A DNA stretch of 64,000 nt from a virus (Duplodnaviria; Caudoviricetes), in IMG/VR virus record IMGVR_UViG_3300028603_000001, positions 64,001-128,000 of that record, one strand, 5' to 3'. Of this stretch, positions 3,001 through 58,619 are shown piece after piece. Every line of letters starts with the position of its first letter. Within the stretch, counting starts at the first letter, position 1. The notes under the pieces were generated by a model. That model searched no databases, was not told where the DNA came from, and saw nothing but the letters and a program-made list of their open reading frames with translations. The translations under genes were made by a program, and so were the position numbers.

Positions 3001-3395
3001 TTTTGCTCTCCTCTCATCAAGTAATACATATAAATAATTCTTATATTTGTACTTATATAAGAGATTATATTATCAAATAAATTACATCCTCTAAAGCTTA
3101 AATCACCATCATTAATATAATTAATTATTTGCTCTAACATTACGCCTTCTTTTAATGCGATTTGATTAAAACTAACAATATATTGACCATTAACCTCAGA
3201 CACATTTATATTTTTTGGATGCAATGCTTTTTTAAAAGTGTTTTTATCAATCTTATACTTTTCATTTACTTTATTTAGAATTGAATTGTACTCTTTTTTT
3301 CTTAATTCATCTGAAATTAACCTAACATATATTTTTGGAATATATTTCTTACCAAAATTTTTTCCTAATGTTTTATTGAAAGATAATGTTTTCAT
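2991..3395 (-). CDS. Hypothetical protein
   Basis: 134 aa ORF overlapping both neighbours. Confidence 0.6.
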   Translation of the reverse strand: MKTLSFNKTLGKNFGKKYIPKIYVRLISDELRKKEYNSILNKVNEKYKIDKNTFKKALHPKNINVSEVNGQYIVSFNQIALKEGVMLEQIINYINDGDLSFRGCNLFDNIISYISTNIRIIYMYYLMRGEQKWE

Positions 3396-7412: not shown

Positions 7413-9286
7413 TGTTTATAAAATTTCAAAAAGTCGTTATGCATAATTTTCTTTCTTATGGACATTCAGAGATTGATTTAACCGATAAACGTTATTGTTT
7501 AGTTAGCGGAATAAATAATGATAAAAAAGATAATGCATCTTCTAATGGAGCAGGGAAATCAAGCTGGGGATCTGCAATTTGCTGGGCACTAACAGGTGAA
7601 ACAATTCAGGGAATAAGCTCTGGAATAAAAAATATTCATGTACAAGAAGATTTATGTTATGTTGAGCTCCATTTCTCTGTGGATAATAATGAGTATAAGA
7701 TAACAAGGTATAAAAATCCAAAATCAAACTTAAAAATTATTGTCAATGATCAAGATGTTTCTGGAAAAGGTATAAGAGAATCTGAAGAAATACTTAATAA
7801 CTATATACCTGATTTAACTAGTCAATTACTAGGTTCGATAATTATTTTAGGTCAAGGGCTTCCTCATAAATTTTCAAATAATACACCTAGTGGTAGAAAA
7901 GGTGTTTTAGAGAAATTATCTAAATCTGACTTCATGATTGAGGATTTAAAAGAGAGGATAAGTGAAAGATCTACCATATTGAATAAAAATCTAAGAGATG
8001 TTGAAGATAAAATACTAACAACACAATCAAATAAAACTCTCTTAGAAAAGCAAATCATAGAGCAAGAAGATATAATAAAAAAATTAAGTGAGCCTCGAGA
8101 CTTTGATTTAGAAATTTTAAATGTATCGAATAAAATAGAAGATATAATGAACAAACAAAAAAATTTTAAAACTAAATTAGCTGAATTTGAAGCAGATAAT
8201 AACACAAAAAATAATTTATTAGCTGAAAAAAATAAAGAGCGTTTACATGCATTATCTTTAGAAAATGCGGAATTTGATAGATTAAAATCAACATATTTTG
8301 AAAAAAGATCTAATCTAATGTCATCTATCTCATCTTTAACCTTGAAAATATCTGATTTAAAATCAATAAAAGATACCTGCCCAACATGTGGTCAAAACAT
8401 TCCAAATGTTGTTAAACCAACAACTGATAAAGAAGAGCAAGAATTAAAGGAAATTACAGGTGAATTAGAAAAACTCAATAACACATATACTTCTTTTGAA
8501 AAAACACATCAAGCTGAACTACAACGTCTAGATCAGCTGTTTAATGTAGAAACTGCAGAAATTTTATCTGATTTAAAAAATATAAAACAACAGATGGATT
8601 TAATAAAAGCTCAAGATGATCAATATTATAAGCAATTAGTTAATTTTAACACAGAAGTTAATAAAATTAAATTAGAAAAAGAACAATTTATAAACAACAT
8701 GAAAAACGCAGAAAAAATATTGTATAATTTAAAATCCACAGTTGAAAAATTAGAGTCAGAAATATTGTATAATAATAGTGAAAAAGAAACCCTTTCTAAA
8801 CATATCTCAGTTGTAAATCAAATGTCAACTCTAATAAAGAGAGACTTTAGAGGTTATCTTTTAAGCAATGTAATTTCATATATTGAATCAAAAGTAAAAG
8901 AATATTCTCTCGAAATCTTCGGCACAGATTCCTTAACAGTAACGTTAGAAGGAAATAATATAAATATAAGCTACTGCAATAAGCCATTTGAGAATTTAAG
9001 CGGTGGAGAGCGTCAGCGTGTTGATTTAATTCTTCAGTTCGCAATTAGAGATATGATGAGACAATATTTAAATTTCTCTTCAAATATTCTTTTATTAGAT
9101 GAGATTTTTGATTCATTAGATGTAATAGCTGTTGACGCTGTATTAAGATGTATTTGTAATAAATTAGCAGATGTTGAAAGTTTATTTATTATTTCACATC
9201 ACGCTAGAGAATTAGAAATACCATATGATTCAGAGTTGATTATTACAAAAGATGAAAATGGCATAAGCAATATTAATTGGAGATGA
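7412..9286 (+). CDS. sbcC: SbcC/Rad50/gp46-like ATPase
   Basis: NGAGKSS Walker A, coiled coil with CPTCGQ zinc hook, LSGGE signature, LLLDE, ISH. Confidence 0.92.
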   Translation: MFIKFQKVVMHNFLSYGHSEIDLTDKRYCLVSGINNDKKDNASSNGAGKSSWGSAICWALTGETIQGISSGIKNIHVQEDLCYVELHFSVDNNEYKITRYKNPKSNLKIIVNDQDVSGKGIRESEEILNNYIPDLTSQLLGSIIILGQGLPHKFSNNTPSGRKGVLEKLSKSDFMIEDLKERISERSTILNKNLRDVEDKILTTQSNKTLLEKQIIEQEDIIKKLSEPRDFDLEILNVSNKIEDIMNKQKNFKTKLAEFEADNNTKNNLLAEKNKERLHALSLENAEFDRLKSTYFEKRSNLMSSISSLTLKISDLKSIKDTCPTCGQNIPNVVKPTTDKEEQELKEITGELEKLNNTYTSFEKTHQAELQRLDQLFNVETAEILSDLKNIKQQMDLIKAQDDQYYKQLVNFNTEVNKIKLEKEQFINNMKNAEKILYNLKSTVEKLESEILYNNSEKETLSKHISVVNQMSTLIKRDFRGYLLSNVISYIESKVKEYSLEIFGTDSLTVTLEGNNINISYCNKPFENLSGGERQRVDLILQFAIRDMMRQYLNFSSNILLLDEIFDSLDVIAVDAVLRCICNKLADVESLFIISHHARELEIPYDSELIITKDENGISNINWR

Positions 9287-25764: not shown

Positions 25765-25839
25765 TGCAGAGTAGAGCAATGGTAGCTTACCGGGCTCATA
25801 ACCCGGCGGTTGAGGGTTCGAATCCCTCCTCTGCGACCA
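25765..25839 (+). tRNA. tRNA-Met(CAT), initiator type
   Basis: Cloverleaf with encoded CCA; weak U1-G72, A11-U24, anticodon stem CCGGG/CCCGG with three G-C pairs, GTTCGAAT T-loop. Confidence 0.92.
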
Positions 25840-31257: not shown

Positions 31258-33015
31258 ATGGGTATAGATAGCTTATGGGGCGAAGAGTTTACTGTTCCAA
31301 AAGAGAAAGAAAAAGCAAAAACCATAGCCGCTAAAATAGCAAAACCATATAATGCAAAAACTTCAATCGAAAAGCAAGTGAAAAGTAAAGTTATCCCCCT
31401 AAAGGAGAAATTGGATCTTATAGAGAAGGAAGTTCGTAATAAATTGAGTAAGCAAATGAATAATGTTCTATGTATAACAAGCAAAGAAGATTTTCACGCT
31501 TATATTGATAAATGTATTAAAAAAGGACGAGTTGCTGTTGATACAGAAACTAATAATAGTTTAGATCCCATAACATGTAAGCTAATGGGTCTTTGCTTAT
31601 ATACTCCAGGTGAAAAACAAGCATATATTCCGGTAAATCACAGAGATCCAGATTCTAAAGAGCGCTTAGATAATCAATTAACAGAAAAAGATATAGCTGA
31701 AGGACTTGTAAGATTGCTTGAGTCAAAAGCTTTATTTGAAACACAAAAAGGTCAGTTTGATTATCAGGTTATTTATCATACGACAGGAGTTAAAATAAGA
31801 ATTGACTGGGATACTTTAATAGCTGAAAAGCTCATTGATGAAAATAAATATGTATATTCATTGAAAGAGCTGTATGTCAAACAGGTAGATCCAGAGCAAG
31901 AAAAATACAGCATCGACAGTCTTTTTGAAGGAATCGAGTACGCTGATGTCGATCCTGAAATATTTGCGCTTTATGCAGCAACAGATGCTATGATGACATC
32001 TAAACTAGCTGATATTCAAAGAGAAAAGTTATATTCAAAAGAACTTGGAAACGTTATACATCTAGCTAGAGAGATTGAAATTCCGCTTTTACCTGTTATA
32101 GGTGAAATGGAATCAGCCGGAATGGAAGTAGACCAAGAATATGGAAAACTTTTATCTGCAAAATACAATACACAATTAGAAGAAGTAGATTCTGAGATAA
32201 GCGTTGAATTAGAAAAATTAAAGCCTATGATTGATGCTTGGAGATTAACTCCAGATGCTAATTTCAGACCTATTATTGGAAGAACAAAAACAATAAACAA
32301 GATTCAATATAAATATTATAAAGGATCTAACCGTGATGGTGATGAACCTTATTGGTATGAAGCTAAAACATCTCGAAAATTATCTGATGCTGAAGCATAT
32401 AATCTAAATTTAGTAGCTACAGAGCAGAAATCAAAATCTGAACAGTTAATAGATCCCATTAATTTAGGATCACCGACACAGTTAGCTATATTATTCTATG
32501 ATATCTTGGGAGCACCAACAGTCAGCAAAAAATCTCCAAGAGGAACAGGTGAGATGGAGTTAATTGCTATTTCTAAAAAAATAGATAATCCTATCTGTAA
32601 ATTAGTTATAAAAAGAAGAGAATTAGTAAAACTTATATCAACGTATATCGACGTTATCCCAGAATTGGCTAAAAGGTGGCCTGATGGTAGAGTTAGAACA
32701 CATTTTAATCCTTATGGTGCTGCAACAGGTAGATTAAGTTCAAGTGATCCGATTAACTTCCAAAATATACCAGCGCATAATAAAGAAGTAAGGATGCTTT
32801 TCTGCTCTTCAAATAAACAGGAAGACATACCTATTACTAGTAATCAGATAATTGTTAAGAAGTTTACAGAAGTTAACACATCAGAAGGATTTGTTTTCGC
32901 TGAAGATTTAAAAACAGGCGAGTATTTAATCTTAGACAATGATGATGGAACAACTGAAGCAATTAAGATAATAGATATTAAAACAGAAGGATTATTTACA
33001 ACAATAATTATTTAA
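31258..33015 (+). CDS. polA: Family A DNA polymerase, N-terminal part (3'-5' exonuclease + thumb) with Hint-like tail
   Basis: VDTET, WDT, YAATDA, INLGSPTQL, TGRLSSSDPINFQNIP; stops before motif A. Confidence 0.9.
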   Translation: MGIDSLWGEEFTVPKEKEKAKTIAAKIAKPYNAKTSIEKQVKSKVIPLKEKLDLIEKEVRNKLSKQMNNVLCITSKEDFHAYIDKCIKKGRVAVDTETNNSLDPITCKLMGLCLYTPGEKQAYIPVNHRDPDSKERLDNQLTEKDIAEGLVRLLESKALFETQKGQFDYQVIYHTTGVKIRIDWDTLIAEKLIDENKYVYSLKELYVKQVDPEQEKYSIDSLFEGIEYADVDPEIFALYAATDAMMTSKLADIQREKLYSKELGNVIHLAREIEIPLLPVIGEMESAGMEVDQEYGKLLSAKYNTQLEEVDSEISVELEKLKPMIDAWRLTPDANFRPIIGRTKTINKIQYKYYKGSNRDGDEPYWYEAKTSRKLSDAEAYNLNLVATEQKSKSEQLIDPINLGSPTQLAILFYDILGAPTVSKKSPRGTGEMELIAISKKIDNPICKLVIKRRELVKLISTYIDVIPELAKRWPDGRVRTHFNPYGAATGRLSSSDPINFQNIPAHNKEVRMLFCSSNKQEDIPITSNQIIVKKFTEVNTSEGFVFAEDLKTGEYLILDNDDGTTEAIKIIDIKTEGLFTTIII

Positions 33016-33105
33016 CTTGACCGGAATAGTCTGAACCGATAATTCTTTAAAGTTTGGATATATTAAAAGAAAATCATCAAAATATGACAAAGGAGAATTC
33101 ATATA

Positions 33106-34017
33106 ATGTATGGGTATATCTATAAAACAATCAACATGATTGATGAAAAAGTTTATATTGGAAAACATACTAATGAATATGTTCGTAAAAATAATTGTAT
33201 TGATCCTAAATATTTTGGATCAGGAAAGGTTATTACTAATGCTATAGCAAAATATGGAGTAGATAAATTCAAATGTGAGATTCTTGAGTGGTGCGATTCA
33301 TTAGAAAATTTAAACAACAGAGAGAAATATTGGATTAATTATTATATGACTAATTATCCTACTACATGTTACAACTTAGCTGAAGGTGGGTCGGGGGGTA
33401 ACAATTTAAAATATAAAACCGAAAAAGAAAAATTAGAAATATTTGATCGCATTAGAAAATCAATAAATACTTATTATCAAACAGATGCTTTTAAAAATGC
33501 TAGAAAAGAGTTGCTCAATAAACCAGAATATCATCAGCGCTTAAGTGATGGTATGAAGGCCGCTAGAGCTAATACTAATAGCAAATATCATACAGATGAA
33601 TATCGACAGAAGAAATCAGAAGCTATTAAAAAGCAATGGTCAAATACGAATAGTAAATATAATAGTCAAGAATATCGTGAGCTGCTTAAGAAAAGAAATT
33701 CTGAAAAATGGGCTGAATTGAGTACTGAAAAGCTTGAAAAATTTAAAGAAAAGAAGCGACAAGAAGCTCTTAAGCGTTGGAAGAACCCAGATCATAGAGA
33801 ACTTATAAAAAAAGCAAAAGCAAAATGTATAATTATATATAACGACTCTGGTGATGAAATTATATTTGATTCTATTGGTGATTGTAACCGAACATTAAAT
33901 ATAGATTCTAGATATTTAATTAAAACAGGTGGTTATATTAAAACAAAAAAATATAAAGGTTGGCGGATAGATTACTATTGTCCAACAAAGATAGGAGGTG
34001 GTAAAGATGATTCTTGA
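33106..34017 (+). mobile_element. Free-standing GIY-YIG homing endonuclease gene inside fractured polA
   Basis: GYIYK...VYIGKH, YFGSG, E-x-Y-W-I, YNL..GG; basic helical C-terminus. Confidence 0.88.
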
Positions 34018-34096
34018 AAAAAGTAATTCTAAAAAATTACGCACTAAAACTGGGTACAAGATAATTGGCTCAGATTATAGTGGTCAAGAACCGTAA
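34007..34096 (+). CDS. polA: Family A DNA polymerase, 29-codon middle fragment carrying motif A Asp
   Basis: Not in ORF track. SD AGGAGGTG at 33993-34000; MILEKSNSKKLRTKTGYKIIGSDYSGQEP-stop. Confidence 0.85.
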   Translation: MILEKSNSKKLRTKTGYKIIGSDYSGQEP

Positions 34097-34101
34097 GGTT
34101 G

Positions 34102-35259
34102 CCTAGACTTACCGCATTTTACTCGCAAGACCAGAATATGATAAAAGCTTATGAGGAAGGAAAAGACTTATACGCTGTTATTGCATCAATGTCTTTTGAT
34201 AAACCCTATGAAGAATGTCTAGAATTCTACCCTGAAGGAACTGAAATTATTCATGAGGGAAAAAAAATAATTACTGGAAACAAAACACACCAAAATAAAG
34301 CAGGTAAAGAAAGAAGAAATTTCGCAAAGAGTATCTTGCTCGGCTTGCTCTACGGACGTGGAGCAGCATCTATTGCTGAACAAATTAAAAAATCAAGAGA
34401 AGAAGCACAAGAGATTATTGATAAATTCTTCGCAGCTTTTCCAGCTGTTAAAAATTGGATTGATAAAACAATTGAAGATGCTCATAAATATGGTTATGTT
34501 GAAGATATAGCAGGTAGACGCAGAAGATTACCTGATATACAATTACCGCAATATACTGTTGAATTTTTAGATAAAAAGAAAACAGGAACGCTATTTAATC
34601 CATTATTAGAATGTGATGATAAGATTGATGAAGCTTCAAATAAGTTAATTAAAAAATATCAAGAAAAATGTTCAAATATTAAATATGCTAGAGATTATGA
34701 AAATCTAAAAGCTGAAGCATTAAAAGAAAAAATAGTTATACATAATAATACTGGTTTTATTGCTCAAGCTGAACGTCAAGCGGTTAATAGCCGCGTTCAG
34801 GGTGGAGCTGCGTCATTAACTAAAACAGCTTTAATCAACATCCATAATGATCAAAAGCTAAGAGATATGGGAGCGTATCTAATAAATACAGTTCACGATG
34901 AAATCTTAATAGAAGCTCCTGATAAATATGCAAAAGAAGCTGCTGAACGCTTAACAGAGATAATGATAAATTCAGCTAAAAAATATGTTCCTAATGTTCC
35001 AATGAGTTGCGATGCATATATAACGAATTCATGGTATTTAGATGAGTTTGCTGTAACGGTTAGATCTGAATTTAAAAAATTAATTAGCGGAGATCCAGAT
35101 GAAAATGTATATCCTATGGACCCAATGGACGCTTTTGAATATATGTGCAAATTAAGAAAAGAATCAACTAGAAGTCAATTATATGAATTAGTAGGTAAAT
35201 TACTACCGAGAGTTCCTGAAAATGTTGATACCTCATACGTATCATTAACGGAAGATTAA
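34102..35259 (+). CDS. polA: Family A DNA polymerase, C-terminal part (fingers/palm)
   Basis: PRLTA continuation of motif A, RNFAKSILLGLLYGRG motif B, NSRVQG, TVHDEI motif C; no well-spaced SD for TTG 34099. Confidence 0.9.
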   Translation, partial: PRLTAFYSQDQNMIKAYEEGKDLYAVIASMSFDKPYEECLEFYPEGTEIIHEGKKIITGNKTHQNKAGKERRNFAKSILLGLLYGRGAASIAEQIKKSREEAQEIIDKFFAAFPAVKNWIDKTIEDAHKYGYVEDIAGRRRRLPDIQLPQYTVEFLDKKKTGTLFNPLLECDDKIDEASNKLIKKYQEKCSNIKYARDYENLKAEALKEKIVIHNNTGFIAQAERQAVNSRVQGGAASLTKTALINIHNDQKLRDMGAYLINTVHDEILIEAPDKYAKEAAERLTEIMINSAKKYVPNVPMSCDAYITNSWYLDEFAVTVRSEFKKLISGDPDENVYPMDPMDAFEYMCKLRKESTRSQLYELVGKLLPRVPENVDTSYVSLTED

Positions 35260-35319
35260 CAATAGTATTACGCTAAATTATATGATTAAAAAAAATCATA
35301 AAAAGGAGATTATAAAAGT

Positions 35320-35910
35320 ATGAAAAAAGGATTAACTTTAGAGGAAGCTTTTAAGGCTTTGAGTGGTAGAGGTAAAGTTACTGAAAGCGAAAAAAAGTTG
35401 AAAGAAGAGTTTGATGATTTTCCAAAACTTATAGACTTAGCAAAAGGTGATGTTTTTACAGCGTATTTTGGAAATCATGAAAGTTGTGATTTTTCATATG
35501 ATTCAAAAAAAGATACTTTAATACAGAAATATTATGACCCAGCTGATACTTTTAAATTTAAAAATATTAAAACACAAACAGATTTTGAGAAAGTTGTTAA
35601 AGATGAGTTAGGTGATGGTAAGATAACTTGGGAAAAAAAAGTAAGAGAAAGTGCTGCTACTGAAGTTAAAATTCCAGAACCTTATAATAAATATTATCAA
35701 GTAGCTGAAGTTGATGGTGGTTATAAAGTTGGTGACCAAATTGAAGGTTATGACATACGCATTCTTGCATATCTTGACGCTAAACCTGAATATGAAGATA
35801 TATTAAAAGAACCATTTGCAGTATTAACTGATGATGAAGATTATCCAGTTTGTGTAATTGTAGGTAGAAGACTTTTTAATGTTTCTATTAGAGATTTACC
35901 TGAAGAATAA
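35320..35910 (+). CDS. Hypothetical late protein, possibly internal head protein
   Basis: GCTAAATTA at 35272-35280; LEEAFKAL, VTES, LKEE, VRES sites. Confidence 0.5.
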   Translation: MKKGLTLEEAFKALSGRGKVTESEKKLKEEFDDFPKLIDLAKGDVFTAYFGNHESCDFSYDSKKDTLIQKYYDPADTFKFKNIKTQTDFEKVVKDELGDGKITWEKKVRESAATEVKIPEPYNKYYQVAEVDGGYKVGDQIEGYDIRILAYLDAKPEYEDILKEPFAVLTDDEDYPVCVIVGRRLFNVSIRDLPEE

Positions 35911-36130
35911 AATATAATTATAAATAAACAGAGTTCGAAAAATCCTCTGTATAATAAAAACCAAAAAATGATTAAATAGTATATAAAAAAAATAAATACT
36001 ATCGCTTATTTTTAGGTGGTAGTATTTTTTATTTTCTTAATTGTATATTAATAGCGATATTTAGAAATGGTTAAATAAATATGATTTAGAGCTCAGCATA
36101 ATTTTTTAATCATAAATCAAAAATATAAAA

Positions 36131-36195
36131 TACGTGAAAAAACACGTAAGCGCAGTTCACGTCTGAATATCCTGCGCTTAAAAAATTAAAACTTT
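36131..36195 (+). promoter_or_regulatory. Structured leader, preQ1-I riboswitch-like
   Basis: TAAGCGCAG/CTGCGCTTA stem, loop starting TTC, A-rich tail just before SD of a queuosine-precursor transporter. Confidence 0.45.
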
Positions 36196-36210
36196 AAAGG
36201 AGAAAGAAAA

Positions 36211-36993
36211 ATGAATAAAATTAAACAAGCATTAAAAAAATCATTAACCTCAACTAGAAATATAAGAACACTATCAATTTTCTTGGGGTTAGTTTCTGTC
36301 TATTGTGTTATTGTTGTTCTTTACAATATTTTCGAATATAAATTCTTTGGGTTCACAGTATTAGAAAACATAAAAGTTCTTGGTGAACCAGTAATGATTG
36401 GAATGGGCGCTGGAACGTTAATTTCATGGATATCGTTCTTAATAATGGATGTTGTCACTGAAGTTTGGGGTAAAAAAACAGCCATTAAGATATTCACATT
36501 TGCAATGATTATTAGTATCACAACATCATTCTTTGGAATGGCTATAGCAAAAATAGGTGAACCATCTTATGGAGATGCTATTGAAAATATTTTTGGGAGT
36601 CATCCTAGAGTAACGATTGCTTCAGCATTTGCATTCTGGGTAGGAAGTTATGTTAACACATTGATAATGCATGTTATGAAAACACGAGCTGAAGATAAAG
36701 GAAAAGCAAAGAACAAGAAATTATTTGCTTTTAGAGCAACAACATCGACGTTACTTGGTCAAGCTGTTGATAATGCATTATTCCAAATAATTGGATTAGC
36801 ACCATTCGGAGTTGGTTTCTGGTTAGCGTCTCCATTTGGGTGGACATGGGGAATGGTAGTTGGTTCAATCATTGTTGGAACAATTTTAGAATTAGCTATT
36901 GAAGCAGTTCTAGTTCCATTCATAACTATTCCTCTATCTAACAAGTTGATCGCTAAAAAAGAAGCTGAAGAAGCAGAATTAGTTGCAGCTTAA
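36211..36993 (+). CDS. yhhQ: Queuosine precursor transporter (YhhQ/VUT family)
   Basis: Multi-TM; FLIMDVVTEVWGKK, PR...AS..AF..G...N, R...ST..GQ.VD. Confidence 0.88.
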   Translation: MNKIKQALKKSLTSTRNIRTLSIFLGLVSVYCVIVVLYNIFEYKFFGFTVLENIKVLGEPVMIGMGAGTLISWISFLIMDVVTEVWGKKTAIKIFTFAMIISITTSFFGMAIAKIGEPSYGDAIENIFGSHPRVTIASAFAFWVGSYVNTLIMHVMKTRAEDKGKAKNKKLFAFRATTSTLLGQAVDNALFQIIGLAPFGVGFWLASPFGWTWGMVVGSIIVGTILELAIEAVLVPFITIPLSNKLIAKKEAEEAELVAA

Positions 36994-36995
36994 AA

Positions 36996-37661
36996 ATGAA
37001 AATTTTAATCACAGGTGCTAGTAACGGAATCGGTCTAGCAACAGCAAAATTATTTTTAGATCGAGGTTATGATGTAGTAGGATTAGACTTAGTTTCTAGT
37101 CCTCTACAAAACCTTAATTATGAACATTATATTTGCGATGTTTCTGAAAAAGATCAGCTACCAGACATTGATGATGTAAATATTTTATTTGTTAACGCTG
37201 GTTTTCAGAATACAGATGACGACATAAAAAACAATTTGTATTCAGCAATATATACTGTTGAAAAATATGGATTACAGAGCTCAATAAAATCTATATTATT
37301 TAACGCTTCAGTATCAGCTCACACAGGATTTGAATTTACTGAATATGTAGCAAGTAAAGCTGGTATGTTAGGTTTAATGAAAAATATAGCTGTTAAAGTT
37401 GCTAAATATGGTGCAACTTGTAATAGCTTAAGTTGTGGTGGTGTTTTAACCGATTTAAATCAACCTGTAATTGAAGATAAACAATTATGGGAAGAAATTA
37501 TGCAAGTCACACCGCTAAAGAAATGGGCAACAGCTGAAGAAGTTGCTGAATGGGTTTGGATGTTTACAGTCATTAATAAATCATGCACAGGACAAGATTT
37601 AATTATCGACAATGGAGAAAAAGATCTTAATAATAACTTTAAATGGCCTAACTACGAATAA
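36996..37661 (+). CDS. Short-chain dehydrogenase/reductase
   Basis: TGASNGIG, NAG, S, YVASK, TGQ. Confidence 0.92.
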   Translation: MKILITGASNGIGLATAKLFLDRGYDVVGLDLVSSPLQNLNYEHYICDVSEKDQLPDIDDVNILFVNAGFQNTDDDIKNNLYSAIYTVEKYGLQSSIKSILFNASVSAHTGFEFTEYVASKAGMLGLMKNIAVKVAKYGATCNSLSCGGVLTDLNQPVIEDKQLWEEIMQVTPLKKWATAEEVAEWVWMFTVINKSCTGQDLIIDNGEKDLNNNFKWPNYE

Positions 37662-37680
37662 AAAATAAATTCAATAATAA

Positions 37681-37720
37681 ATACTTCAAGAAATCAATTG
37701 TCTTGAAGTGTTTTTATTTA
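37681..37720 (+). terminator. Intrinsic terminator
   Basis: ACTTCAAGA...TCTTGAAGT then T run. Confidence 0.65.
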
Positions 37721-37828
37721 TAACATAAATACATATGTTTATATTAAAAAGTTAAGAGAACTTAAATTTTATATGTTAAATCTTAATATTAACTTGTATT
37801 ATATAATAAAGAAAGAGGTAATATAATT

Positions 37829-38119
37829 ATGGCACAAATACTAAATCAATTGATAGAACAAATAAAAGATCCGATAGAAATAATCAGTATATCAGCATCA
37901 TTTTTAGTTCTTATTTCTATGCTGGTTAAAACAACAAATTTCAAAGGAACAATATTTATGAGAATTTTCAATACTATTGGTAGTGTAATTTTTGTTTATT
38001 ATGGAATTGCAAGAATTTTACCAGCGGTTATTTTAATGAATAGTTTAATTGTGATTATTAATGTTATTTATATAATTAAGGAAACTAAAGACCACAAAAA
38101 GACTGCAAAAAATATATAG
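37829..38119 (+). CDS. YgjV-like small membrane protein
   Basis: Three hydrophobic helices; R-x-x-N-x-IGS-x-x-F-x-x-YG...N pattern. Confidence 0.6.
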   Translation: MAQILNQLIEQIKDPIEIISISASFLVLISMLVKTTNFKGTIFMRIFNTIGSVIFVYYGIARILPAVILMNSLIVIINVIYIIKETKDHKKTAKNI

Positions 38120-38165
38120 ATATAAAAAAAATTGTATATTATATAATAAAGGAGGATTCTAATTT

Positions 38166-38732
38166 ATGAAAGAAAAAATAGAAGCCAGAACTTGTATTAT
38201 TCCTGTTCCAAAAGAGGAATGTGAACTTAAAAAATGTAAATGCACAGAATGTGATCATAAACCAGGTTGTGATTATGGTTGGATAATAGAATTATGGGAA
38301 AATGAAAATAAAGTCATGGGTAAAGATTCTTTACTAGGCCCAGCTGACCCCCGAATGATAAAACCAGATATGAGAAAAGGTCATTTTATAACAATTACTG
38401 GAAAATATGATTTCTGTCGTTTCAATGTCTCTAGAAAAAAAGATCTTATTATTATATATGATATCTATGTTGATGAGAAGGGTAGAGGGCAAGGTTTAAG
38501 TAGAAAATTACTTCAATATTTAATGGATAAGTATGACCGTGATATATTTGCGAAATGTGTCCGAGGAACATCAGCGGAAGATTTCTGGCGCCATATCGGT
38601 AAACAATTGGATGCTAATTTAGGCAAACCAGAACCACATGACATGTATGAGCATAGAGATGGTAAACGGGATTTAGGTTGGTATCTTGTGGAAAATAAAA
38701 ATAAGAAAACAACGAAAGAAGAGTTGTGGTGA
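38166..38732 (+). CDS. GNAT-family acyltransferase with Cys-rich N-terminus
   Basis: IYVDEKGRGQGLSRKLL acetyl-CoA motif, A-x-x-FW-x-x-x-G. Confidence 0.8.
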   Translation: MKEKIEARTCIIPVPKEECELKKCKCTECDHKPGCDYGWIIELWENENKVMGKDSLLGPADPRMIKPDMRKGHFITITGKYDFCRFNVSRKKDLIIIYDIYVDEKGRGQGLSRKLLQYLMDKYDRDIFAKCVRGTSAEDFWRHIGKQLDANLGKPEPHDMYEHRDGKRDLGWYLVENKNKKTTKEELW

Positions 38733-38813
38733 AAATCATGAATCTTCTGTTTTATTAATTAATATATTGTATAATATATTACAACAAAATATACAGATAA
38801 ATGGAGGTATAAA

Positions 38814-39872
38814 GTGTTACCAGAATTAAAACCAGAACAACAAAATTGGACAAATCCATTTAAGGATATAAAACTAACTCCGTATCGATTAATTGCAGCA
38901 GGTGGTGGACCTAGAAATGTTGTCTTTCCTGATGGCTCAATTTTAAGTGCTGGAGATGTCAAACGTGAATTGAATTATCCTGGATTATTTGCTTGGAATG
39001 CCGAGAAAAAAGAATTGTTAGAATCGGTAGAATTTCTACATAAAAATCCTGATAGTAATTGGGATTTAGTAGTTGATAGTGGAGCTTATTCTGCTTGGTC
39101 AAAAGGTAAAATGTTTGATATGGATGAGTATATTACTTTTCTAGAATCAAATAAAATTTTAGACGTGTGTTTTTGGGCTGCTGAAGCGGATGTTATTCCT
39201 GGTTCCTTTGGAGTTGACCCGACAGAAGAACAAAGATTATCTGCGCCTGAAGAATCTTGGAATAATTACCTATACATGATTAAACGAGTTTCATGGCCTA
39301 AAAAGATAGTTCCTATTTTCCACCAAGGAGAAGATTTTAAACATTTGAGAAGAATGTTAGAGTATACATTTCCTGATGGTGATCATATTCCTTATATTGG
39401 GATTTCACCTAGAAATGATGTTCATGTAAGTGAAAAAATGAAGTGGTATGAAATGGTTTGGGGAATTATCAGAGAAAGTTCAAATCCAAATGTTTTAACT
39501 CATAACTTTGGTATGACAACAATCTCTATGATGGAACAATATCCAAGCTGTAGTTCAGATTCTACATCTTGCGTAAGAAGCGCTTCGTTTGGAAATATTA
39601 TGTTAGTAGTAAATGGTAAAGTTAAATCTATTTACGTAAGTGATCGACACATGGACAGTTCAGACCACATCTTAAATCAACCGCAGGCTATCAAAGAAGC
39701 AGTTGAGGAAGAATGTAAACGTATAGGACATGGATTAACTTTAAATGATTTAGTTTATAATGACCCAAAAGGGCAATACAGAGCTTTATTTAATTTATTT
39801 TCTTTATATGAATGGAGTTCAAATTTTGTATATGAAGGAACAAATCAATTTAAAGAATCATTATGGGATTAA
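38814..39872 (+). CDS. dpdA: DpdA-like / TGT-fold guanine transglycosylase
   Basis: VVDSGAYS, D-V-I-P, PIFHQGED, YIGIS, HNFG, SSDSTS motifs. Confidence 0.75.
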   Translation: MLPELKPEQQNWTNPFKDIKLTPYRLIAAGGGPRNVVFPDGSILSAGDVKRELNYPGLFAWNAEKKELLESVEFLHKNPDSNWDLVVDSGAYSAWSKGKMFDMDEYITFLESNKILDVCFWAAEADVIPGSFGVDPTEEQRLSAPEESWNNYLYMIKRVSWPKKIVPIFHQGEDFKHLRRMLEYTFPDGDHIPYIGISPRNDVHVSEKMKWYEMVWGIIRESSNPNVLTHNFGMTTISMMEQYPSCSSDSTSCVRSASFGNIMLVVNGKVKSIYVSDRHMDSSDHILNQPQAIKEAVEEECKRIGHGLTLNDLVYNDPKGQYRALFNLFSLYEWSSNFVYEGTNQFKESLWD

Positions 39873-39901
39873 AATGAGAAAAGAAAGGAATATAAATAAA
39901 A

Positions 39902-41032
39902 ATGATATTAAACACAAAAGAATTTAAAAATATTTGTAGTATAATTTTAAGTGCTGTCGATGGAAGTGAATTATCAAACTTAACAGAAACACTTGAATTA
40001 AAAACAATTGGAAAAACATTAACGTTATCAACAACCAATAAAGAGTATTACGCTAAAGTTTCGTTCCCTTTAGAACACGAAGAAGATTTTCACGCAGCGG
40101 TTAACGCTAATTTATTCTTAAAACTAATTGCTGCTATCACAACAGAAACAGTTGAATTGTTAGTAAAAGGAAATGTACTACATATTAAAGCGAACGGTAA
40201 TTATAAACTTCCTATTATCACTGAAAATGATAAGATGTTAGAAATTCCTGTTATTACAATCGAAAATAAAACCTTAGAAATGAATATCAATAGCTCTGTT
40301 TTAGACAGCATTGTGACTTATAATAGTAAACAATTAGCTATCGGCTCTGTTGCAAAACCAGTTCAAAAAATGTTTTATGTTGATAATAAAGGTTGTATAA
40401 CTTTTACAACAGGAGCCTGCGTAAACAGTTTTGAATTAGAAAAACCATTCTCTTTATTATTAAATAGTCGCTTAGTAAATCTATTCAAATTATTTAAAAA
40501 TACAGTTGTAAAATTCAGTTTAGGTTATGATCCAATCAGTGAAACAATTATCCAAACAAAAGTCTCTTTTGAGACTGATACAATAACTTTAACAGCTGTC
40601 ACAGGATGTGATGATAAATTATTAAGTCAAGTTCCAGTTGATGCAATTAGGGGAAGAGCTAATAAAGCTTATGATAATGTTGTTGTTCTAAATGTTATAG
40701 CAATTACAGAAGCTATTAACCGTCTACTATTATTTAGTGCTGGATATGGAAGTAAAGAAAATCTAAAACCTTATAGCTTATTTAAATTTGTAGATGATAA
40801 AGTAACTATTTATGATACTAAAGAAGAAAACACAGAGATTTTAAATTATCAAAATGGAACAACTCTTACAAATGAATATTCAATGACTTTAGATTTAATT
40901 GAATTTAAAAAAGTTTTAGATAACTGCAATGAACAGTATATGACAATGAACTTCGGAGATGGAAAAGCTTGTGTTATAACTAGAGGTTCTATTAAAAATG
41001 TATTACCTGAAGTAGTAACGAAATCTGTATAA
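39902..41032 (+). CDS. dnaN: Sliding clamp, DNA polymerase III beta-like
   Basis: 376 aa beta-clamp length and pattern (LTLSTTN, terminal V-L-P); clamp-loader genes nearby. Confidence 0.65.
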   Translation: MILNTKEFKNICSIILSAVDGSELSNLTETLELKTIGKTLTLSTTNKEYYAKVSFPLEHEEDFHAAVNANLFLKLIAAITTETVELLVKGNVLHIKANGNYKLPIITENDKMLEIPVITIENKTLEMNINSSVLDSIVTYNSKQLAIGSVAKPVQKMFYVDNKGCITFTTGACVNSFELEKPFSLLLNSRLVNLFKLFKNTVVKFSLGYDPISETIIQTKVSFETDTITLTAVTGCDDKLLSQVPVDAIRGRANKAYDNVVVLNVIAITEAINRLLLFSAGYGSKENLKPYSLFKFVDDKVTIYDTKEENTEILNYQNGTTLTNEYSMTLDLIEFKKVLDNCNEQYMTMNFGDGKACVITRGSIKNVLPEVVTKSV

Positions 41033-42153: not shown

Positions 42154-43158
42154 ATGATTAGAATAAAAGAAGACAAGTGTTTAAAACTGTCGGGGATAAC
42201 ATCATTATTTATATCTTTTGATTTTAATCTGAAAGTTATTGAAGTTATAAAATCAACAGATAAGTACGATTATAATAAAAAAACACATACATGGGAAGTT
42301 CCAATAACATCACTTGCTTATCTTTTAGATGAATTAACTTATATTGATGATATTGAGCTGCAGTTATATAATGAAACAGATAGTAAAGAACATTACTATC
42401 CAACATTGAATTATAAAATTCCACCTTTTAAGCACCAACTAGAAGGCATCGAATGGGGATTAAACATAAAAAAGGGGTTATTATTAGATGAGCCTGGAGC
42501 TGGAAAAACAACACAGATGATTTATTTAGCTGAAGAATTGAAAGCACAAAAAGGATTAGAACATTGTTTAATTATTTGTGGTATTAACGCTTTAAAATCA
42601 AACTGGAAAAAAGAAATAAATAAATTTTCTAGTTTATCTTGCAGAGTTTTAGGTGAAAAAGTAAATTCCAAAGGTAAAATTTCTTATTCAACAGTTAAGG
42701 AAAGGGTTCAAGAATTATTATCTCCAATAGATGCTTTTTTTGTCATCATCAATATAGAGACAATCAGATCAGATGAGGTTATCAAAGCAATAAAAAATGG
42801 TCCTAATAAGTTTGAAATGATAGTTGTTGATGAAGTACATAAGTGTTTTTCTGGTGATACATTAATAGCTACCGATAAAGGAAGTTTAAAAATAAAAGAT
42901 ATTGTTGAAAATAAATTAATGTGTAAAATTAAATCATATAATATCGACACTAATAAAGAAGAATATAAAGATATAGATATTTACTCATTATATAAATCTG
43001 AAAATGAAGAATCATTAATTCAATTAGAGATATTAGATGATAATAATAAGATACATATAATTAAATGTACGTTAGACCATCCAATATACACATTAAACAG
43101 AGGTTATGTAAAAGCTGAAAATTTACTAGAAACTGATGATATTTTAATCAATAATTAA
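42154..43158 (+). CDS. SNF2-family helicase N-part fused to N-intein (42844-43155)
   Basis: LDEPGAGKT, DEVHK then CFSGDTLI (block A), CTLDHPIYT (block B). Confidence 0.92.
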   Translation: MIRIKEDKCLKLSGITSLFISFDFNLKVIEVIKSTDKYDYNKKTHTWEVPITSLAYLLDELTYIDDIELQLYNETDSKEHYYPTLNYKIPPFKHQLEGIEWGLNIKKGLLLDEPGAGKTTQMIYLAEELKAQKGLEHCLIICGINALKSNWKKEINKFSSLSCRVLGEKVNSKGKISYSTVKERVQELLSPIDAFFVIINIETIRSDEVIKAIKNGPNKFEMIVVDEVHKCFSGDTLIATDKGSLKIKDIVENKLMCKIKSYNIDTNKEEYKDIDIYSLYKSENEESLIQLEILDDNNKIHIIKCTLDHPIYTLNRGYVKAENLLETDDILINN

Positions 43159-54636: not shown

Positions 54637-54884
54637 TGCATATATACATTTAACCCTTGATTCTCCAATAGAATTTTAAGTTCTCTTAACGTTTACTAAA
54701 TGGTTAATAACTTAACATCTAATAAGAATTATTAGCAAGACAACTGAAATTTACAAAATTAAAAAAATAAATTGTATATTATTATATATAATTAAAAATA
54801 TAAAAAATCTTAGCGATAAGGTTTTTTATTAGCTAAATTATACACATCAGGTTATTATAATATGTACCTGTAAACTATTTTATA

Positions 54885-54958
54885 ATTAAAAGCCACACCA
54901 CAGGCAACTGTGGGCCGGAAAGCCAGAGGGACTCTCAGTAGTCAGCCGTGCTGCAGAA
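54885..54958 (+). promoter_or_regulatory. c-di-GMP-I (GEMM) riboswitch
   Basis: GCCACAC-CACAG-GCAA-CTGTG-GGCCGGAAAGCC...GGGACT...AGTCAGCCG-TGCTGCA; GNRA-capped P2, AAAGC junction, CAGCC; GC-rich island in AT-rich DNA. Confidence 0.75.
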
Positions 54959-54968
54959 AGAGGTAATT

Positions 54969-55538
54969 ATGAAAAACAAAAAAGAAAAAATTAATTTAAG
55001 AAAATTTTTATTTGTACTACCCTTGCTTTTATTAGCTCTAATCACAACAGTAGTAGCTACTTTTGCTTGGTGGAATACGTTAACAGTTGAAAAAGATTTT
55101 GATGGAACAATTGGTGACTCAGTCGTATTAAAATTAACAGCTGCTGATTTCAGTGGTGTTCTGGTTCCTGAAGATGTATATGATAATGACGAAGATATTT
55201 TAAATCAAGGTTGGGTAAAAGTATGGTCAACAAACTTAAACTTTACTGTCGATAGAACAGATACAACAGGTGATTCTTTTGTATTAACTATCACACCTGT
55301 TAAAATTTTTGTTGATGGAGTTGATCGAAGTTCTTATTTTGATTTGAAAATTTTAGATGGTGAAGATGATGACCTAAGCTATGATATTAATACTGCTAAA
55401 ACTTTAACGTTAAAATTAAGTTTTAGAGATATATTAGAAGAAGAACAAGAGGAGGTTAGAACAACATTCGCAGGATTCGCAGGGGAACAGTTAACTATAA
55501 CAATTGAAGCAAAAATCACAGCACAACCACAACCCTAA
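54969..55538 (+). CDS. Secreted protein with SipW-class signal peptide (TasA/CalY-like)
   Basis: Basic N-region, hydrophobic core, ATFAWW cleavage motif; beta-rich mature part. Confidence 0.65.
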   Translation: MKNKKEKINLRKFLFVLPLLLLALITTVVATFAWWNTLTVEKDFDGTIGDSVVLKLTAADFSGVLVPEDVYDNDEDILNQGWVKVWSTNLNFTVDRTDTTGDSFVLTITPVKIFVDGVDRSSYFDLKILDGEDDDLSYDINTAKTLTLKLSFRDILEEEQEEVRTTFAGFAGEQLTITIEAKITAQPQP

Positions 55539-55637: not shown

Positions 55638-56216
55638 ATGAGTAAAATCTTATCAACAATTCTTGCTGTATTTATTTTTATATCTTTTCTCTCAAGTACG
55701 GACATATACGCTTATTGGAATAATTTAGAAATAACATATACAGTTACCGCACAAATAGGTGTATGGGATTACAAAATAATCCCTGACGAATGGAATCTTA
55801 ATATCTGGGAAGATGAAGATAATTTAAATCAGACAATTCCTGAAAACCAGTTATTCTCCTATAATGGTTTATTATATGTTGTAAGAGAGGGTGAGGTATA
55901 TAACCCACATTGGCATGGATTACCAGGTGAACCAAATACACAATGGGCTTATGTATCCCTTGAATTAGAATGGAGACCAAATATGAATTATCGAACATTA
56001 TCAGTTGTTGTCAGAGAAGGAAGATATTTTATAGCTAATCCAGCTTATAACGATAATTGGTTTGTTGGAGACCCATTAAATTCAGCGAATAAAGCATGGT
56101 CAGAATGGAGAGAAATAGAACAACTTCCAGAATCATATTTTGGCTTCTTATTAGATTATCCAATGGTAAAAGATTATCGCGCTAATATAGCTGATGTTAT
56201 CTTTATAACTAATTAA
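55638..56216 (+). CDS. Secreted protein with SipW-class signal and CBM5/12-like aromatic repeats
   Basis: IYAYW...IGVW; FSYNGLLY and WRPNMNY....VVREGRYF motifs. Confidence 0.55.
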   Translation: MSKILSTILAVFIFISFLSSTDIYAYWNNLEITYTVTAQIGVWDYKIIPDEWNLNIWEDEDNLNQTIPENQLFSYNGLLYVVREGEVYNPHWHGLPGEPNTQWAYVSLELEWRPNMNYRTLSVVVREGRYFIANPAYNDNWFVGDPLNSANKAWSEWREIEQLPESYFGFLLDYPMVKDYRANIADVIFITN

Positions 56217-56257: not shown

Positions 56258-56321
56258 ATTTAATTAATTGTATATTATTATGAATGAATAAATCATAAAA
56301 TATAAATTTTTGGAGGTTAAA

Positions 56322-58619
56322 ATGAGAGTATTATTATTAATGAGAGGTGCTCCTGGTTGTGGTAAAACGACATGGATTAAAAACCATAATTTAGAAGATT
56401 ATACGTTATCACCAGATGAATTAAGAATTAAATGTAGTTCTCTAGAATTACAACCAACAGGTGAATTAAAAGTTTCACAAAATCAAGAAAATGAAAGTGC
56501 TGTTTGGAGTATTTTATTTAAACTTCTAGAACATAGAATGTCTCGTGGAGAGTTTACTGTTATAGACGCCACATGTTCTAAAACGAAAGATATTAAACAA
56601 TATAAAGAATTAGCTGATCAATATAGATATAGAATGTATATAGTTGATTTCACAAAAGTATCTTTAGAAACATGCCTAAAACAAAATAAAATGAGACCAG
56701 AACATAAATGGGTTCCAGAGAGAGCTATTGAAAATATCTATGCTAGATTTGCAACACAACAAATTCCCAGTGGTGTAACCATTATTCAACCAGATGATTT
56801 TGATGCAGTATTAGAAAAACCATTTGATGTTTCTGAATATAAAAGAATAGTATTTATTGGAGATATTCATGGATGTTATGATACACTAATGCAATATCCA
56901 GATTTTAAAAATGGTTTAAGAGATGATACAGAATATATTTTCTTAGGAGATTATATTGATAGAGGCAATCAAAATGCAGAAGTGTTGCATTGGTTATTCT
57001 CTATTATGAATAAACCAAATGTATGTTTATTAGAAGGAAATCATGAGAAGTGGATCAGGGATTATGGAAATAGTGTTCCTGCTAAATCAAGGGAGTTTGA
57101 ACATAAAACAAAACAGCAATTAATGAGCGGTGGTTTTGATGAAAAAATGGCAAGGATGTTATACAGGAAAGTAAGACAATTCTCTCATATTACATGGAAT
57201 GGAATTGAAATTTTAGCTTGCCACGCAGGAATCCCACATTTACAACATAATCTATTGTATGTTCCATCTATTGATTTTATTCAAGGTGTTGGAAAATATG
57301 CTGATTATTTAGCAGTTGCTGAAACATGGATGGGCAAAACAAACTTAAATCAATATCTAATTCATGGTCATAGAAATGTTGAAGGTGACGAAACACAAAT
57401 TGCCGATAGAGTATTCAATTTAGAAGGTAGAGTTGAATTTGGAGGTAAGTTAAGAATTGTTGAATTATCAATGGAATATTTAATGCCTGAATATGGTTAT
57501 ACTGCTGATGGAGGAAGAATCCCAATAGGTGTTATCACAACTCCAAGCTGGAATGTTGTTGAGTTAGATGATTGCCAACCAATTACAAAAGAGTTAAATA
57601 CAGAGGAACGAAAAGTTGAAACAGTAGCAGATGCAATTACATATTTACAAAATAATAAATATGTTCAAGAAAAAGCACTAGGCGATGGAATATCTTCATT
57701 TAATTTTACTAGAGAAGCTTTTTTTAAAGGTAACTGGAATAGACAGACTGTTCTAGCTAGAGGTTTATTTATAGACACGAAGAATAAAAAAATTATGGCT
57801 AGATCATATAAAAAGTTCTTTAATATTAATGAAGTTAGAGAAACTGAATTAGTATCACTAAGAGAAAAATTGCAATTTCCTGTAACTGCATACGTTAAAG
57901 AAAATGGATTTTTAGCTATTGTTTCTTATGATTATATTAACGATGATTTATTTATAGCTTCTAAATCAACCAATAAAGGTCCTTATGTGGAGTATATTAA
58001 AAAAGCTATTGAACCTTATCGAGAAAGGTTATTAGAATACTTTAGAGAATTATATAAGAGAGCTAACGACATTAACGGTCAAATAGCTACATTTGTATTT
58101 GAATGTATAGATGTTGAAAATGACCCACATATAATCAAGTACAATGAAAGTAAATTAATTCTATTAGATGTTATATTAAATAGCTTAGATTATAAAGCAC
58201 TTAATTACAAAGAATTAAACCTTGTTGCAAAATTAATACCAGATTGTCCTGTAAAAGAAAAAGCTTTTGAAATAAAAGACTGGGATGCGTTTAGAGACCT
58301 TTATAATGAAATTCAATCAGAAGAGTATCAATATAATGGAAAATATATTGAAGGATTTGTATTTGTTGACGAAGCTGGTTTTATGACTAAGTGTAAAACA
58401 GGTTATTATAATCAATGGAAGAAATTAAGGGGAATTACAGATCAAACTTTAAGACGTGGATATATCACTAAAACTGGTATGCTAACAACTTCTTTAGAAA
58501 ATATGTATTATGGATTTTTAAAAGACTTATATAAAAATGATTATAATAAAGAAACAAAAATTTATCCATATAAAACAGATATTATATCATTAAGAGAAAA
58601 GTTCTTAAAGGAGAATTAA
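56322..58619 (+). CDS. Pnkp-like RNA repair enzyme: kinase + metallophosphoesterase + RNA ligase
   Basis: GAPGCGKT, GDIHG/GDYIDRG/GNHE/HGH, ARGLF, KFFN, KENGFL, EGFV. Confidence 0.88.
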   Translation: MRVLLLMRGAPGCGKTTWIKNHNLEDYTLSPDELRIKCSSLELQPTGELKVSQNQENESAVWSILFKLLEHRMSRGEFTVIDATCSKTKDIKQYKELADQYRYRMYIVDFTKVSLETCLKQNKMRPEHKWVPERAIENIYARFATQQIPSGVTIIQPDDFDAVLEKPFDVSEYKRIVFIGDIHGCYDTLMQYPDFKNGLRDDTEYIFLGDYIDRGNQNAEVLHWLFSIMNKPNVCLLEGNHEKWIRDYGNSVPAKSREFEHKTKQQLMSGGFDEKMARMLYRKVRQFSHITWNGIEILACHAGIPHLQHNLLYVPSIDFIQGVGKYADYLAVAETWMGKTNLNQYLIHGHRNVEGDETQIADRVFNLEGRVEFGGKLRIVELSMEYLMPEYGYTADGGRIPIGVITTPSWNVVELDDCQPITKELNTEERKVETVADAITYLQNNKYVQEKALGDGISSFNFTREAFFKGNWNRQTVLARGLFIDTKNKKIMARSYKKFFNINEVRETELVSLREKLQFPVTAYVKENGFLAIVSYDYINDDLFIASKSTNKGPYVEYIKKAIEPYRERLLEYFRELYKRANDINGQIATFVFECIDVENDPHIIKYNESKLILLDVILNSLDYKALNYKELNLVAKLIPDCPVKEKAFEIKDWDAFRDLYNEIQSEEYQYNGKYIEGFVFVDEAGFMTKCKTGYYNQWKKLRGITDQTLRRGYITKTGMLTTSLENMYYGFLKDLYKNDYNKETKIYPYKTDIISLREKFLKEN

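Follow-up and report, generated by a model that had tools for sequence, protein, structure and literature searches.

The stretch of DNA considered here, referred to as the window, comprises 64,000 nucleotides (bases 64001-128000) of IMG/VR record IMGVR_UViG_3300028603_000001, a 180.8-kb virus genome from an uncultured phage that bears direct terminal repeats and is 100% complete; coordinates are those of the window unless marked as genome (C1) or related contig (L) positions. Its plus strand reads, from 31258 to 41032, a split polA, a 196-residue open reading frame (ORF) without assigned function, and then genes for a YhhQ-type queuosine-precursor transporter, a short-chain dehydrogenase/reductase (SDR), a small membrane protein, an acyltransferase of the GNAT family and a DpdA-type 7-deazaguanine DNA transglycosylase, followed by dnaN (Table 1). 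Ahead of yhhQ lies a leader with two elements that resemble preQ1-I riboswitches, which sense 7-aminomethyl-7-deazaguanine (preQ1). A first-pass annotation made from the sequence alone had listed these five genes with correct coordinates, all on the plus strand and between polA and the sliding clamp gene; the leader it described is also present, although it begins further upstream than the 36040 given there, at about 35889. We consider it probable, with real reservations given below, that the module is a preQ1-sensing, salvage-fed DNA-modification operon.

Table 1. Features of the module, its leader and its immediate flanks, in window coordinates.
Feature	Position	Strand	Evidence or remark
polA, interrupted by a GIY-YIG gene	31258-35259	+	
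Sigma-70-like promoter, TAGAGA-18-TATAAT (putative)	35889..35918	+	Consensus scan, 10/12 matches; immediately precedes aptamer A
Aptamer A, preQ1-I-like; P1 (A)CAGAG/CTCTG(T), loop UUCGAAAAAUC, A-rich tail	35924..35970	+	Rfam RF00522, 17.7 bits
Intrinsic terminator after aptamer A; 15-pair stem, then T-run	35994..36037	+	
Hairpin TACGTG-AAAAAA-CACGTA, abutting aptamer B	36131..36148	+	Read from sequence
Aptamer B, preQ1-I-like; P1 GCGCAG/CUGCGC, 16-nt loop UUC...C, tail AAAAC..AAAGGAG	36150..36202	+	Read from sequence
YhhQ/QPTR (COG1738, Vut_1) queuosine-precursor transporter	36211..36993	+	PF02592, 100.1 bits (cut-off 27.2)
Classical SDR oxidoreductase, NAD-type, 221 aa	36996..37661	+	adh_short_C2, 77.5 bits; starts 3 nt after the yhhQ stop
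Membrane protein, 96 aa, SemiSWEET/PnuC/YgjV-half-like, accessory	37829..38119	+	Three hydrophobic segments (three transmembrane)
GNAT acyl-CoA N-acyltransferase, 188 aa, N-terminal five-Cys element	38166..38732	+	Acetyltransf_1, 24.7 bits (cut-off 20.7)
DpdA, 7-deazaguanine DNA transglycosylase (Dp-1-like), 352 aa	38814-39872	+	phrog_887, E 7e-43
dnaN	39902-41032	+	Downstream flank of dpdA

Phage DpdA enzymes exchange guanine in DNA for derivatives of preQ1 or of 7-cyano-7-deazaguanine (preQ0), and the phages thereby evade restriction. The last gene of the module had been assigned to this family on the strength of a fold resembling that of the tRNA-guanine transglycosylases (TGT), and the assignment holds: the protein groups with phage DpdA rather than with tRNA enzymes, both in its match to phrog_887 (a family labelled 'queuine tRNA-ribosyltransferase') and in tblastn matches to 172 phage records, while Pfam TGT (PF01702) gives zero match. 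Best among the tblastn matches is gp7 of Streptococcus phage Dp-1 (39% identity, E 5e-53), followed by Bacillus phage Flasso (36%), phage MS1 (35%) and then CAjan-type entries annotated as '7-deazaguanosine inserting enzyme'. Searched against chains of the Protein Data Bank (PDB), neither the sequence nor a profile of nine DpdA sequences matched a TGT or a DpdA, and the relationship is visible by fold only. An AlphaFold2 model built from 62 homologues (pLDDT 94.5) retrieves TGT or ArcTGT structures throughout ranks 1-50, the Foldseek matches to PDB that were listed, at E of about 1e-7, TM-scores of 0.40-0.55 and identities of 11-16%. Within the 62 homologues D88 (in DSGAYS), D249 (in SSDSTS), D126, H170 and H230 are invariant, and by motif likeness D88 and D249 may correspond to the two catalytic aspartates of the TGT family. 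The nearest characterised DpdA is that of Dp-1, whose DNA carries the deoxynucleoside of preQ1 (dPreQ1) at 3389 per 10^6 nucleotides (PMC6884629), and by analogy preQ1 is for that reason the probable base inserted here too.

Where the phage would obtain that base is suggested as much by what its genome lacks as by what it carries. The earlier report of no que genes in the window was accurate, and for FolE, PTPS/QueD and QueF the absence of any candidate extends to the whole complete 180.8-kb genome. Two proteins outside the window were considered and rejected. A 202-residue PP-loop ATPase on the minus strand (C1:151614-152222; L001 1069-1677) matches the 'QueC-like' family phrog_1550 at 70 bits, and as QueC it is not credible, since it reaches only 19 bits against the QueC equivalog TIGR00364, far under the cut-off of 150; it could still touch deazaguanine chemistry in some other manner. 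A radical-SAM 'Fe-S oxidoreductase', also on the minus strand (C1 at about 4.0-6.3 kb; L002, L003), resembles SPASM/twitch maturases, has zero match to the QueE family and is likewise not a credible QueE. Its coding sequence is divided in two, the first part ending in the N-terminal half of an intein and the second starting with the C-terminal half (a split intein), with a 318-residue ORF between them. With no pathway genes in the genome, and with a queuosine-precursor transporter in the slot where relatives carry the pathway, the first-pass proposal that the phage imports its base precursor rather than making it is well supported.

The relatives bear this out. In one 166-kb record (L012; DpdA 64% identical, alignment A3) the stretch directly upstream of dpdA encodes QueE, a bimodular QueF, QueC and FolE, with a B-type aptamer ahead of queF and with none of YhhQ, SDR or GNAT. 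The synthesis pathway thus occupies the same slot behind the same aptamer, and salvage has therefore replaced preQ1 synthesis. The salvage form is found in 11 other related contigs (DpdA 57-89% identical). With the window included, each of the 12 contigs has GNAT, DpdA and DnaN side by side, and YhhQ is present in all 10 that have upstream sequence. The proposed co-occurrence of YhhQ, SDR, GNAT and DpdA hence survives with one amendment: the SDR accompanies YhhQ in nine of these 10, its place in the remaining contig (L008) being taken by an amidase.

Among characterised phages, the Streptococcus phages Dp-1 and MS1 (with queCDE(F), folE, a transporter, dpdA and dnaN) offer the closest parallel. 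In both, dpdA lies directly upstream of dnaN, the DpdA proteins being those 39% and 35% identical to that of the window, and a queuosine-precursor transporter stands directly upstream of dpdA (QueT in Dp-1, Vut_1 in MS1); together with Flasso they hold que genes, dpdA and dnaN in an order like that of L012. They differ in making preQ0 or preQ1 themselves, whereas the phage described here has no such pathway and adds the SDR, the GNAT, the small membrane protein and the riboswitches. Likewise, Salmonella phage 7-11 and the Mycobacterium phage Orion group carry DpdA without genes for preQ0, for which host preQ0 or uptake has been proposed; phage 7-11 DNA holds about 50 copies of the 7-amido-7-deazaguanine deoxynucleoside (dADG) per 10^6 nucleotides, modification is undetectable in Orion DNA, and some phages are known to encode YhhQ (PMC6884629). 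What sets the present locus apart from these phages is that uptake forms part of the dpdA operon, under the putative control of preQ1-type aptamers and alongside enzymes of its own. At the DNA level the 4-kb module is remote from known phages, a distant search of GenBank phages giving a single 100-bp match, in dpdA of Flasso.

Two further traits of the relatives stand apart from the question of salvage. Genes for DNA methyltransferases (MT-A70 and N6_Mtase-like) and GIY-YIG proteins lie at varying points between SDR and dpdA (L006 6385-6936; L011 4704-6403; L099 5467-7007); this slot collects DNA-modification genes. In several relatives, L010/L011 included, TGA also seems to be decoded as Trp (code 4), whereas the window fits code 11: in L012 dpdA (7001-8071) a TGA stands where the six closest homologues have Trp, one 248-residue ORF of L012 holds nine TGA codons, ORF coverage of that record rises 1.68-fold under code 4, and the GNAT gene of L008 (5015-5500) contains an in-frame TGA. 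The hosts of this lineage therefore include users of genetic code 11 and of code 4.

The leader is the second element that ties the module to preQ1. Its two candidate aptamers belong to a family of which 26 elements were aligned: in the P1 helix 90% of cells are paired, double changes occur at four of the six pairs, and the covariation score was reached by none of 500 shuffles, while slid registers are only 43-56% paired; the UUC at the start of the loop is invariant. Further, the tandem arrangement of A and B recurs upstream of yhhQ in every relative, with elements of the aptamer A plan in the same place in L006, L008, L009, L010/11, L099, L101 and L103 and with terminators behind them in L006, L008, L009, L010 and L011. 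We read these elements as variant preQ1-I riboswitches. The terminator would then be the expression platform of a transcriptional OFF switch with aptamer A, whereas aptamer B includes the Shine-Dalgarno sequence of yhhQ in its tail; the hairpin beside it may provide an alternative fold, as its 5' arm (ACGTGAA) is able to pair with the aptamer loop (UUCACGU). Known preQ1-I riboswitches precede yhhQ, queT and queCDEF (PMC11625349), and the phage elements share with them a P1 of 5-6 bp, a loop of the form UUC...C and an A-rich tail that runs into AAGGAG. They depart from the known class in that most copies have loops of 15-16 nt rather than 12 and score below the Rfam gathering threshold, and in that a phage carries them, as a tandem of a terminator type and then a Shine-Dalgarno type. 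The putative promoter is no more than a match to the consensus, and shuffled sequence is not poorer than this region in sites of that kind.

YhhQ transporters import preQ0, preQ1 or queuine. The protein of the window satisfies TIGR00697, 'queuosine precursor transporter', at 60.9 bits (cut-off 50.95), and reaches only 17 bits against the E. coli-type equivalog NF008406, for which 252 are required; it is its context, with the aptamer upstream and dpdA downstream, that suggests preQ0, preQ1 or queuine as cargo. Among the relatives YhhQ is only 26-38% identical while SDR, GNAT and DpdA remain at 45-89% (for the window and L006, 28% for YhhQ and 87% for the SDR), which points to repeated swapping of the transporter inside a stable operon. 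Partner enzymes vary as well. L008 (2338-4725) has the amidase pair alone; L099 (1441-5345) and L101 (3090-6914) have Vut_1, amidase, Vut_1 and SDR in succession, the amidase being of the amidase-signature family (PF01425), the first and amidase-paired Vut_1 following the tandem aptamers and the second, SDR-paired one having a short preQ1-like aptamer of its own; in L009 and L103 a GDSL hydrolase joins the set. Speculatively, the hydrolase and the amidase fit the stripping of ester- and amide-linked groups from conjugates of the queuosine family. The idea that each YhhQ paralogue is matched to its partner, amidase or SDR, was discarded, for pairwise identities show no such partition. The small membrane protein is present as the first-pass annotation stated, although the YgjV resemblance by which it was named is, like a POPDC match, weak and below cut-off, and its structural neighbours in the Atlas include SemiSWEET, PnuC and CBU_0592 besides a YgjV half. 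These neighbours suggest a small dimeric transporter; homologues occur in L006, L008, L010, L011 and L103 and were not found in L009, L099, L101 or L106.

The SDR has the motifs of a classical family member (ITGxSxGIG at 5-13, (V/N)NAG at 66-69, S105 and Y117-x3-K121), conserved in 19 orthologues. An Asp at the end of beta2 selects NAD rather than NADP in such enzymes, and because Asp31 is invariant at this position the protein is probably NAD-linked; its nearest solved relatives are NAD-linked secondary-alcohol dehydrogenases acting on 4-hydroxyisoleucine and on borneol, the latter a cyclic alcohol. A search of 50,697 GenBank phage records with the SDR protein gave zero matches, and homologues at 60-65% identity number in the hundreds. 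With one genome taken per species, 80 bacterial species or loci carry an orthologue (46-64% identical), mostly from rumen and gut: Erysipelotrichaceae and other Bacilli, Clostridia, Spirochaetales, Bacteroidales, Eggerthellaceae and metagenome-assembled genomes of Kiritimatiellae. In at least 69 of the 80 the SDR gene directly follows, or overlaps with, the end of a Vut_1 gene, and under a strict pattern at least 42 of those 69 cassettes show a B-type aptamer some 55 nt ahead of yhhQ, a looser scan adding more. The other neighbour families are scattered, the commonest being an ABC ATPase at 12 loci and prolyl-tRNA synthetase at 9; clustering of the neighbours around the 80 loci disclosed no further queuosine gene, and dpdA, GNAT, polA and dnaN occur at none of them. 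Long 'SDR' ORFs in L081, L054 and L084 that might have been taken for YhhQ-SDR fusions are not fusions.

TGT and QueA need preQ1. Both are encoded in all 40 cassette genomes that were checked and QueH in 37, whereas genuine QueC is found in none (every match is at 28 bits or less and lies in another PP-loop enzyme) and QueF has no match in 36, the other four being borderline at 28-31 bits. Having TGT and QueA without QueC, these bacteria must therefore get preQ1 externally or by way of another salvaged compound, and the linkage of the cassette in preQ1-dependent bacteria ties the SDR to preQ1 supply. By homology the phage would have obtained its SDR together with a YhhQ, as one cassette, from bacteria of the gut or rumen. 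The suggestion made from the window alone, that the SDR belongs to deazaguanine salvage, is thus strengthened, since its orthologues form a YhhQ operon behind a preQ1-type aptamer in so many bacteria that depend on preQ1; as to substrate, queuine, preQ0 and other compounds all stay candidates. No SDR in queuosine-precursor salvage is described in the literature searched in full text, and a 2024 survey of queuosine-precursor transporters mentions no dehydrogenase, SDR or oxidoreductase.

That the imported compound and the SDR reaction together yield preQ1, by whatever chemistry, seems to us slightly favoured. Queuine is the only base of the queuosine family with secondary alcohols, and the chemistry we prefer for the SDR would begin with oxidation of its cyclopentenediol, an allylic diol, after which isomerisation and hydrolysis would free preQ1; this reaction was already suggested in the first-pass annotation and now gains support from its context, but as a joint statement about cargo and reaction it is tentative and somewhat less than an even prospect. 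A precedent exists in bacterial queuine salvage by QueL, a radical-SAM queuine lyase, and QueK, a hydrolase (Yuan et al. 2019, summarised in PMC11130926). Like that route, the one proposed here would lead from a salvaged queuosine-family compound to preQ1 for a canonical bacterial TGT in organisms that lack queCDEF; the two differ in that the candidate here is an NAD-type SDR in an operon with YhhQ.

Nothing more than uptake may, of course, be required. YhhQ might import preQ1 directly for DpdA, in which case SDR, GNAT and membrane protein would not be deazaguanine enzymes at all, the SDR having perhaps come along with the captured transporter cassette and the GNAT being an unrelated auxiliary or anti-defence gene. 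DpdA and a transporter would suffice in principle, as the pair of genes in MS1, without SDR or GNAT, illustrates; SDR and GNAT have generic folds without a specific match, and several relatives dispense with the membrane protein. Against this, the YhhQ-SDR pair persists across several phyla despite changing flanks, the SDR stays at 45-87% identity while phage YhhQ (26-38%) is replaced repeatedly, and in 12 of 12 contigs the GNAT keeps its place beside dpdA, and we therefore hold direct supply to be unlikely, although it deserves to be taken seriously.

For the SDR itself the main rival is a QueF-like role as a non-orthologous replacement of that enzyme, in which YhhQ would import preQ0 and the SDR reduce its nitrile to give preQ1 for TGT or DpdA. 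Such a replacement would account for the 36 cassette genomes without a QueF match (and the four borderline ones), all 40 with a TGT that needs preQ1 and with QueA; E. coli YhhQ is reported to transport preQ0 (PMC5372724); and repression by preQ1 is what an operon for a preQ1-producing enzyme might be expected to show. Yet QueF works through a thioimide on a catalytic Cys and the SDR family has no invariant Cys, QueF uses NADPH whereas the coenzyme rule applied to Asp31 predicts NAD, and no SDR is known to carry out the four-electron reduction of a nitrile. A QueF-like function is thus improbable.

What the GNAT does is the more speculative part of the salvage reading. Its acyl-CoA motif RGQG(L/I)S (107-112) is intact, with R107 and G108 invariant, and seven cysteines are invariant as well: the N-terminal five (C10, C19, C26, C29 and C35) and C84 and C131. 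An AlphaFold2 model (pLDDT 88.7) finds GNAT folds leading the PDB search, with hundreds of structures at E<1e-3. The family is tight, all 63 clusters being at least 51% identical, so that no characterised homologue is reached, and it is seen only in metagenomic contigs of this phage lineage; the protein has zero matches in the 50,697 GenBank phage records, the Atlas returns generic viral GNAT clusters only, and an IMG/VR scan with the GNAT profile added one new contig. A 137-residue ORF at the corresponding position in L012 was considered as a relative and set aside, as hhalign with the GNAT profile shows no relation. Tailoring of the preQ1 amine beside dpdA has been described in phages, by DpdM (methyl, giving mdPreQ1) and DpdN (formyl, giving fdPreQ1) (10.1101/2023.04.13.536721). 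The GNAT is of a different enzyme family, and in a like position it could use acyl-CoA on the same aminomethyl group; acetylated or acylated preQ1 other than formyl was not found in the literature searched. The earlier proposal that the GNAT N-acylates the preQ1 amine accordingly keeps its intact motif and its constant place beside dpdA, and loses ground through its absence from the relative with de novo synthesis; we regard acylation of preQ1 as possible, though doubtful. Bolder still, and distinctly improbable as a whole, is the combination in which the SDR represents an undescribed, non-radical and NAD-dependent route from queuine or a related compound to preQ1, used by many preQ1-dependent bacteria of gut and rumen and captured by phages, while the GNAT makes an N-acyl-preQ1 that DpdA places in DNA as an undescribed base.

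A main role in tRNA modification, by which imported preQ1 would feed the host TGT and keep host and phage tRNA-Asp and tRNA-His modified with queuosine, and by which the TGT-fold protein would itself act on tRNA, is very improbable: the phage does encode tRNA-Asp(GTC) and tRNA-His(GTG), which belong to the four tRNAs modified with queuosine, the structural neighbours of DpdA are tRNA enzymes and the bacterial cassette serves tRNA modification, but by sequence the protein belongs with DpdA from phages (Dp-1, CAjan and a further 170 phage records) and is missed by Pfam TGT, its identity to solved tRNA TGTs is only 11-16%, and dpdA sits among replication genes as it does in Dp-1, MS1 and Flasso.

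In the preferred account, a preQ1-sensing operon fed by salvage, transcription would start near 35920 and meet first aptamer A with its terminator and then aptamer B over the ribosome-binding site of yhhQ, so that plentiful free preQ1 (or preQ0) would shut the operon off. YhhQ would bring a 7-deazaguanine compound in from the medium, and the co-translated NAD-type SDR would turn the imported form into preQ1, the presumed substrate of DpdA, preferably by way of the queuine diol. DpdA would then swap guanine in the phage DNA for preQ1, as is presumed from its Dp-1 relative, and so give protection from restriction. The Cys-rich GNAT and the SemiSWEET-like membrane protein would be parts of the salvage version of the system, the former most likely N-acylating preQ1 at its aminomethyl group, whether as the free base or within DNA.

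A number of observations weigh against this account and should temper it. No enzyme would be required were preQ1 itself the compound that YhhQ brings in, and the role of the SDR is deduced from operon linkage; nor is the partner of YhhQ fixed, being an amidase in L008 and both enzymes in L099 and L101. The contigs with the module all belong to one lineage, as their DpdA identities indicate, so that co-occurrence among them is not independent evidence. The GNAT is absent from the whole 166-kb record of L012, and Dp-1, MS1 and Flasso lack it too; its distribution thus follows the salvage form of the module rather than DpdA in itself, and its lack in a relative that makes preQ1 de novo argues against general tailoring after insertion. 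At Rfam gathering thresholds (39 bits for RF00522) the leader is empty, with aptamer A at only 17.7 bits and aptamer B of the window uncalled by RF00522; elsewhere the scores are also below 39, at 30.1 bits for the aptamer B homologue of L009 and 26.8 bits for bacterial L084, while bacterial variants with 15-nt loops score only 10.2 bits (L016). Finally, as the phage has its own tRNA-Asp and tRNA-His, imported preQ1 could also be available for tRNA modification by the host TGT.

Several features of the window and its genome lie outside the module. A free-standing gene for a GIY-YIG endonuclease (33106-34017) separates the two ORFs of polA, and downstream of dnaN a fragment of an SNF2 helicase (42154-43158) has a Hint-like C-terminal end. 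A c-di-GMP-I riboswitch aptamer on the plus strand at 54882-54958 (45.8 bits, where 35 is the gathering score) has downstream of it two ORFs without a family match (54948-55538 and 55638-56216) and also a 769-residue fusion of kinase, phosphatase and RNA ligase (Pnkp-Rnl; 56310-58619). Twelve tRNA genes are clustered at the genome ends (C1:29-659 and 179711-180748), and a tRNA-Met lies at window position 25765; the Asp(GTC) and His(GTG) tRNAs are among these genes.

Modification of phage DNA with 7-deazaguanines is known and uptake of precursors has already been suggested, but a dedicated and regulated salvage operon is not described in the literature searched. The first-pass annotation did not contain the riboswitches, the origin of the YhhQ-SDR pair in bacteria or the alternative partner enzymes of relatives, amidase and GDSL hydrolase. 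Gut microbes exchange queuosine precursors as micronutrients, and one of these, queuine, is needed by the animal host as well. The occurrence of the transporter-dehydrogenase pair in dozens of gut and rumen species makes the SDR a candidate for a missing enzyme of queuosine-precursor salvage. More broadly, if the GNAT does tailor preQ1, its product would be a new member among the modified DNA bases that block restriction enzymes.

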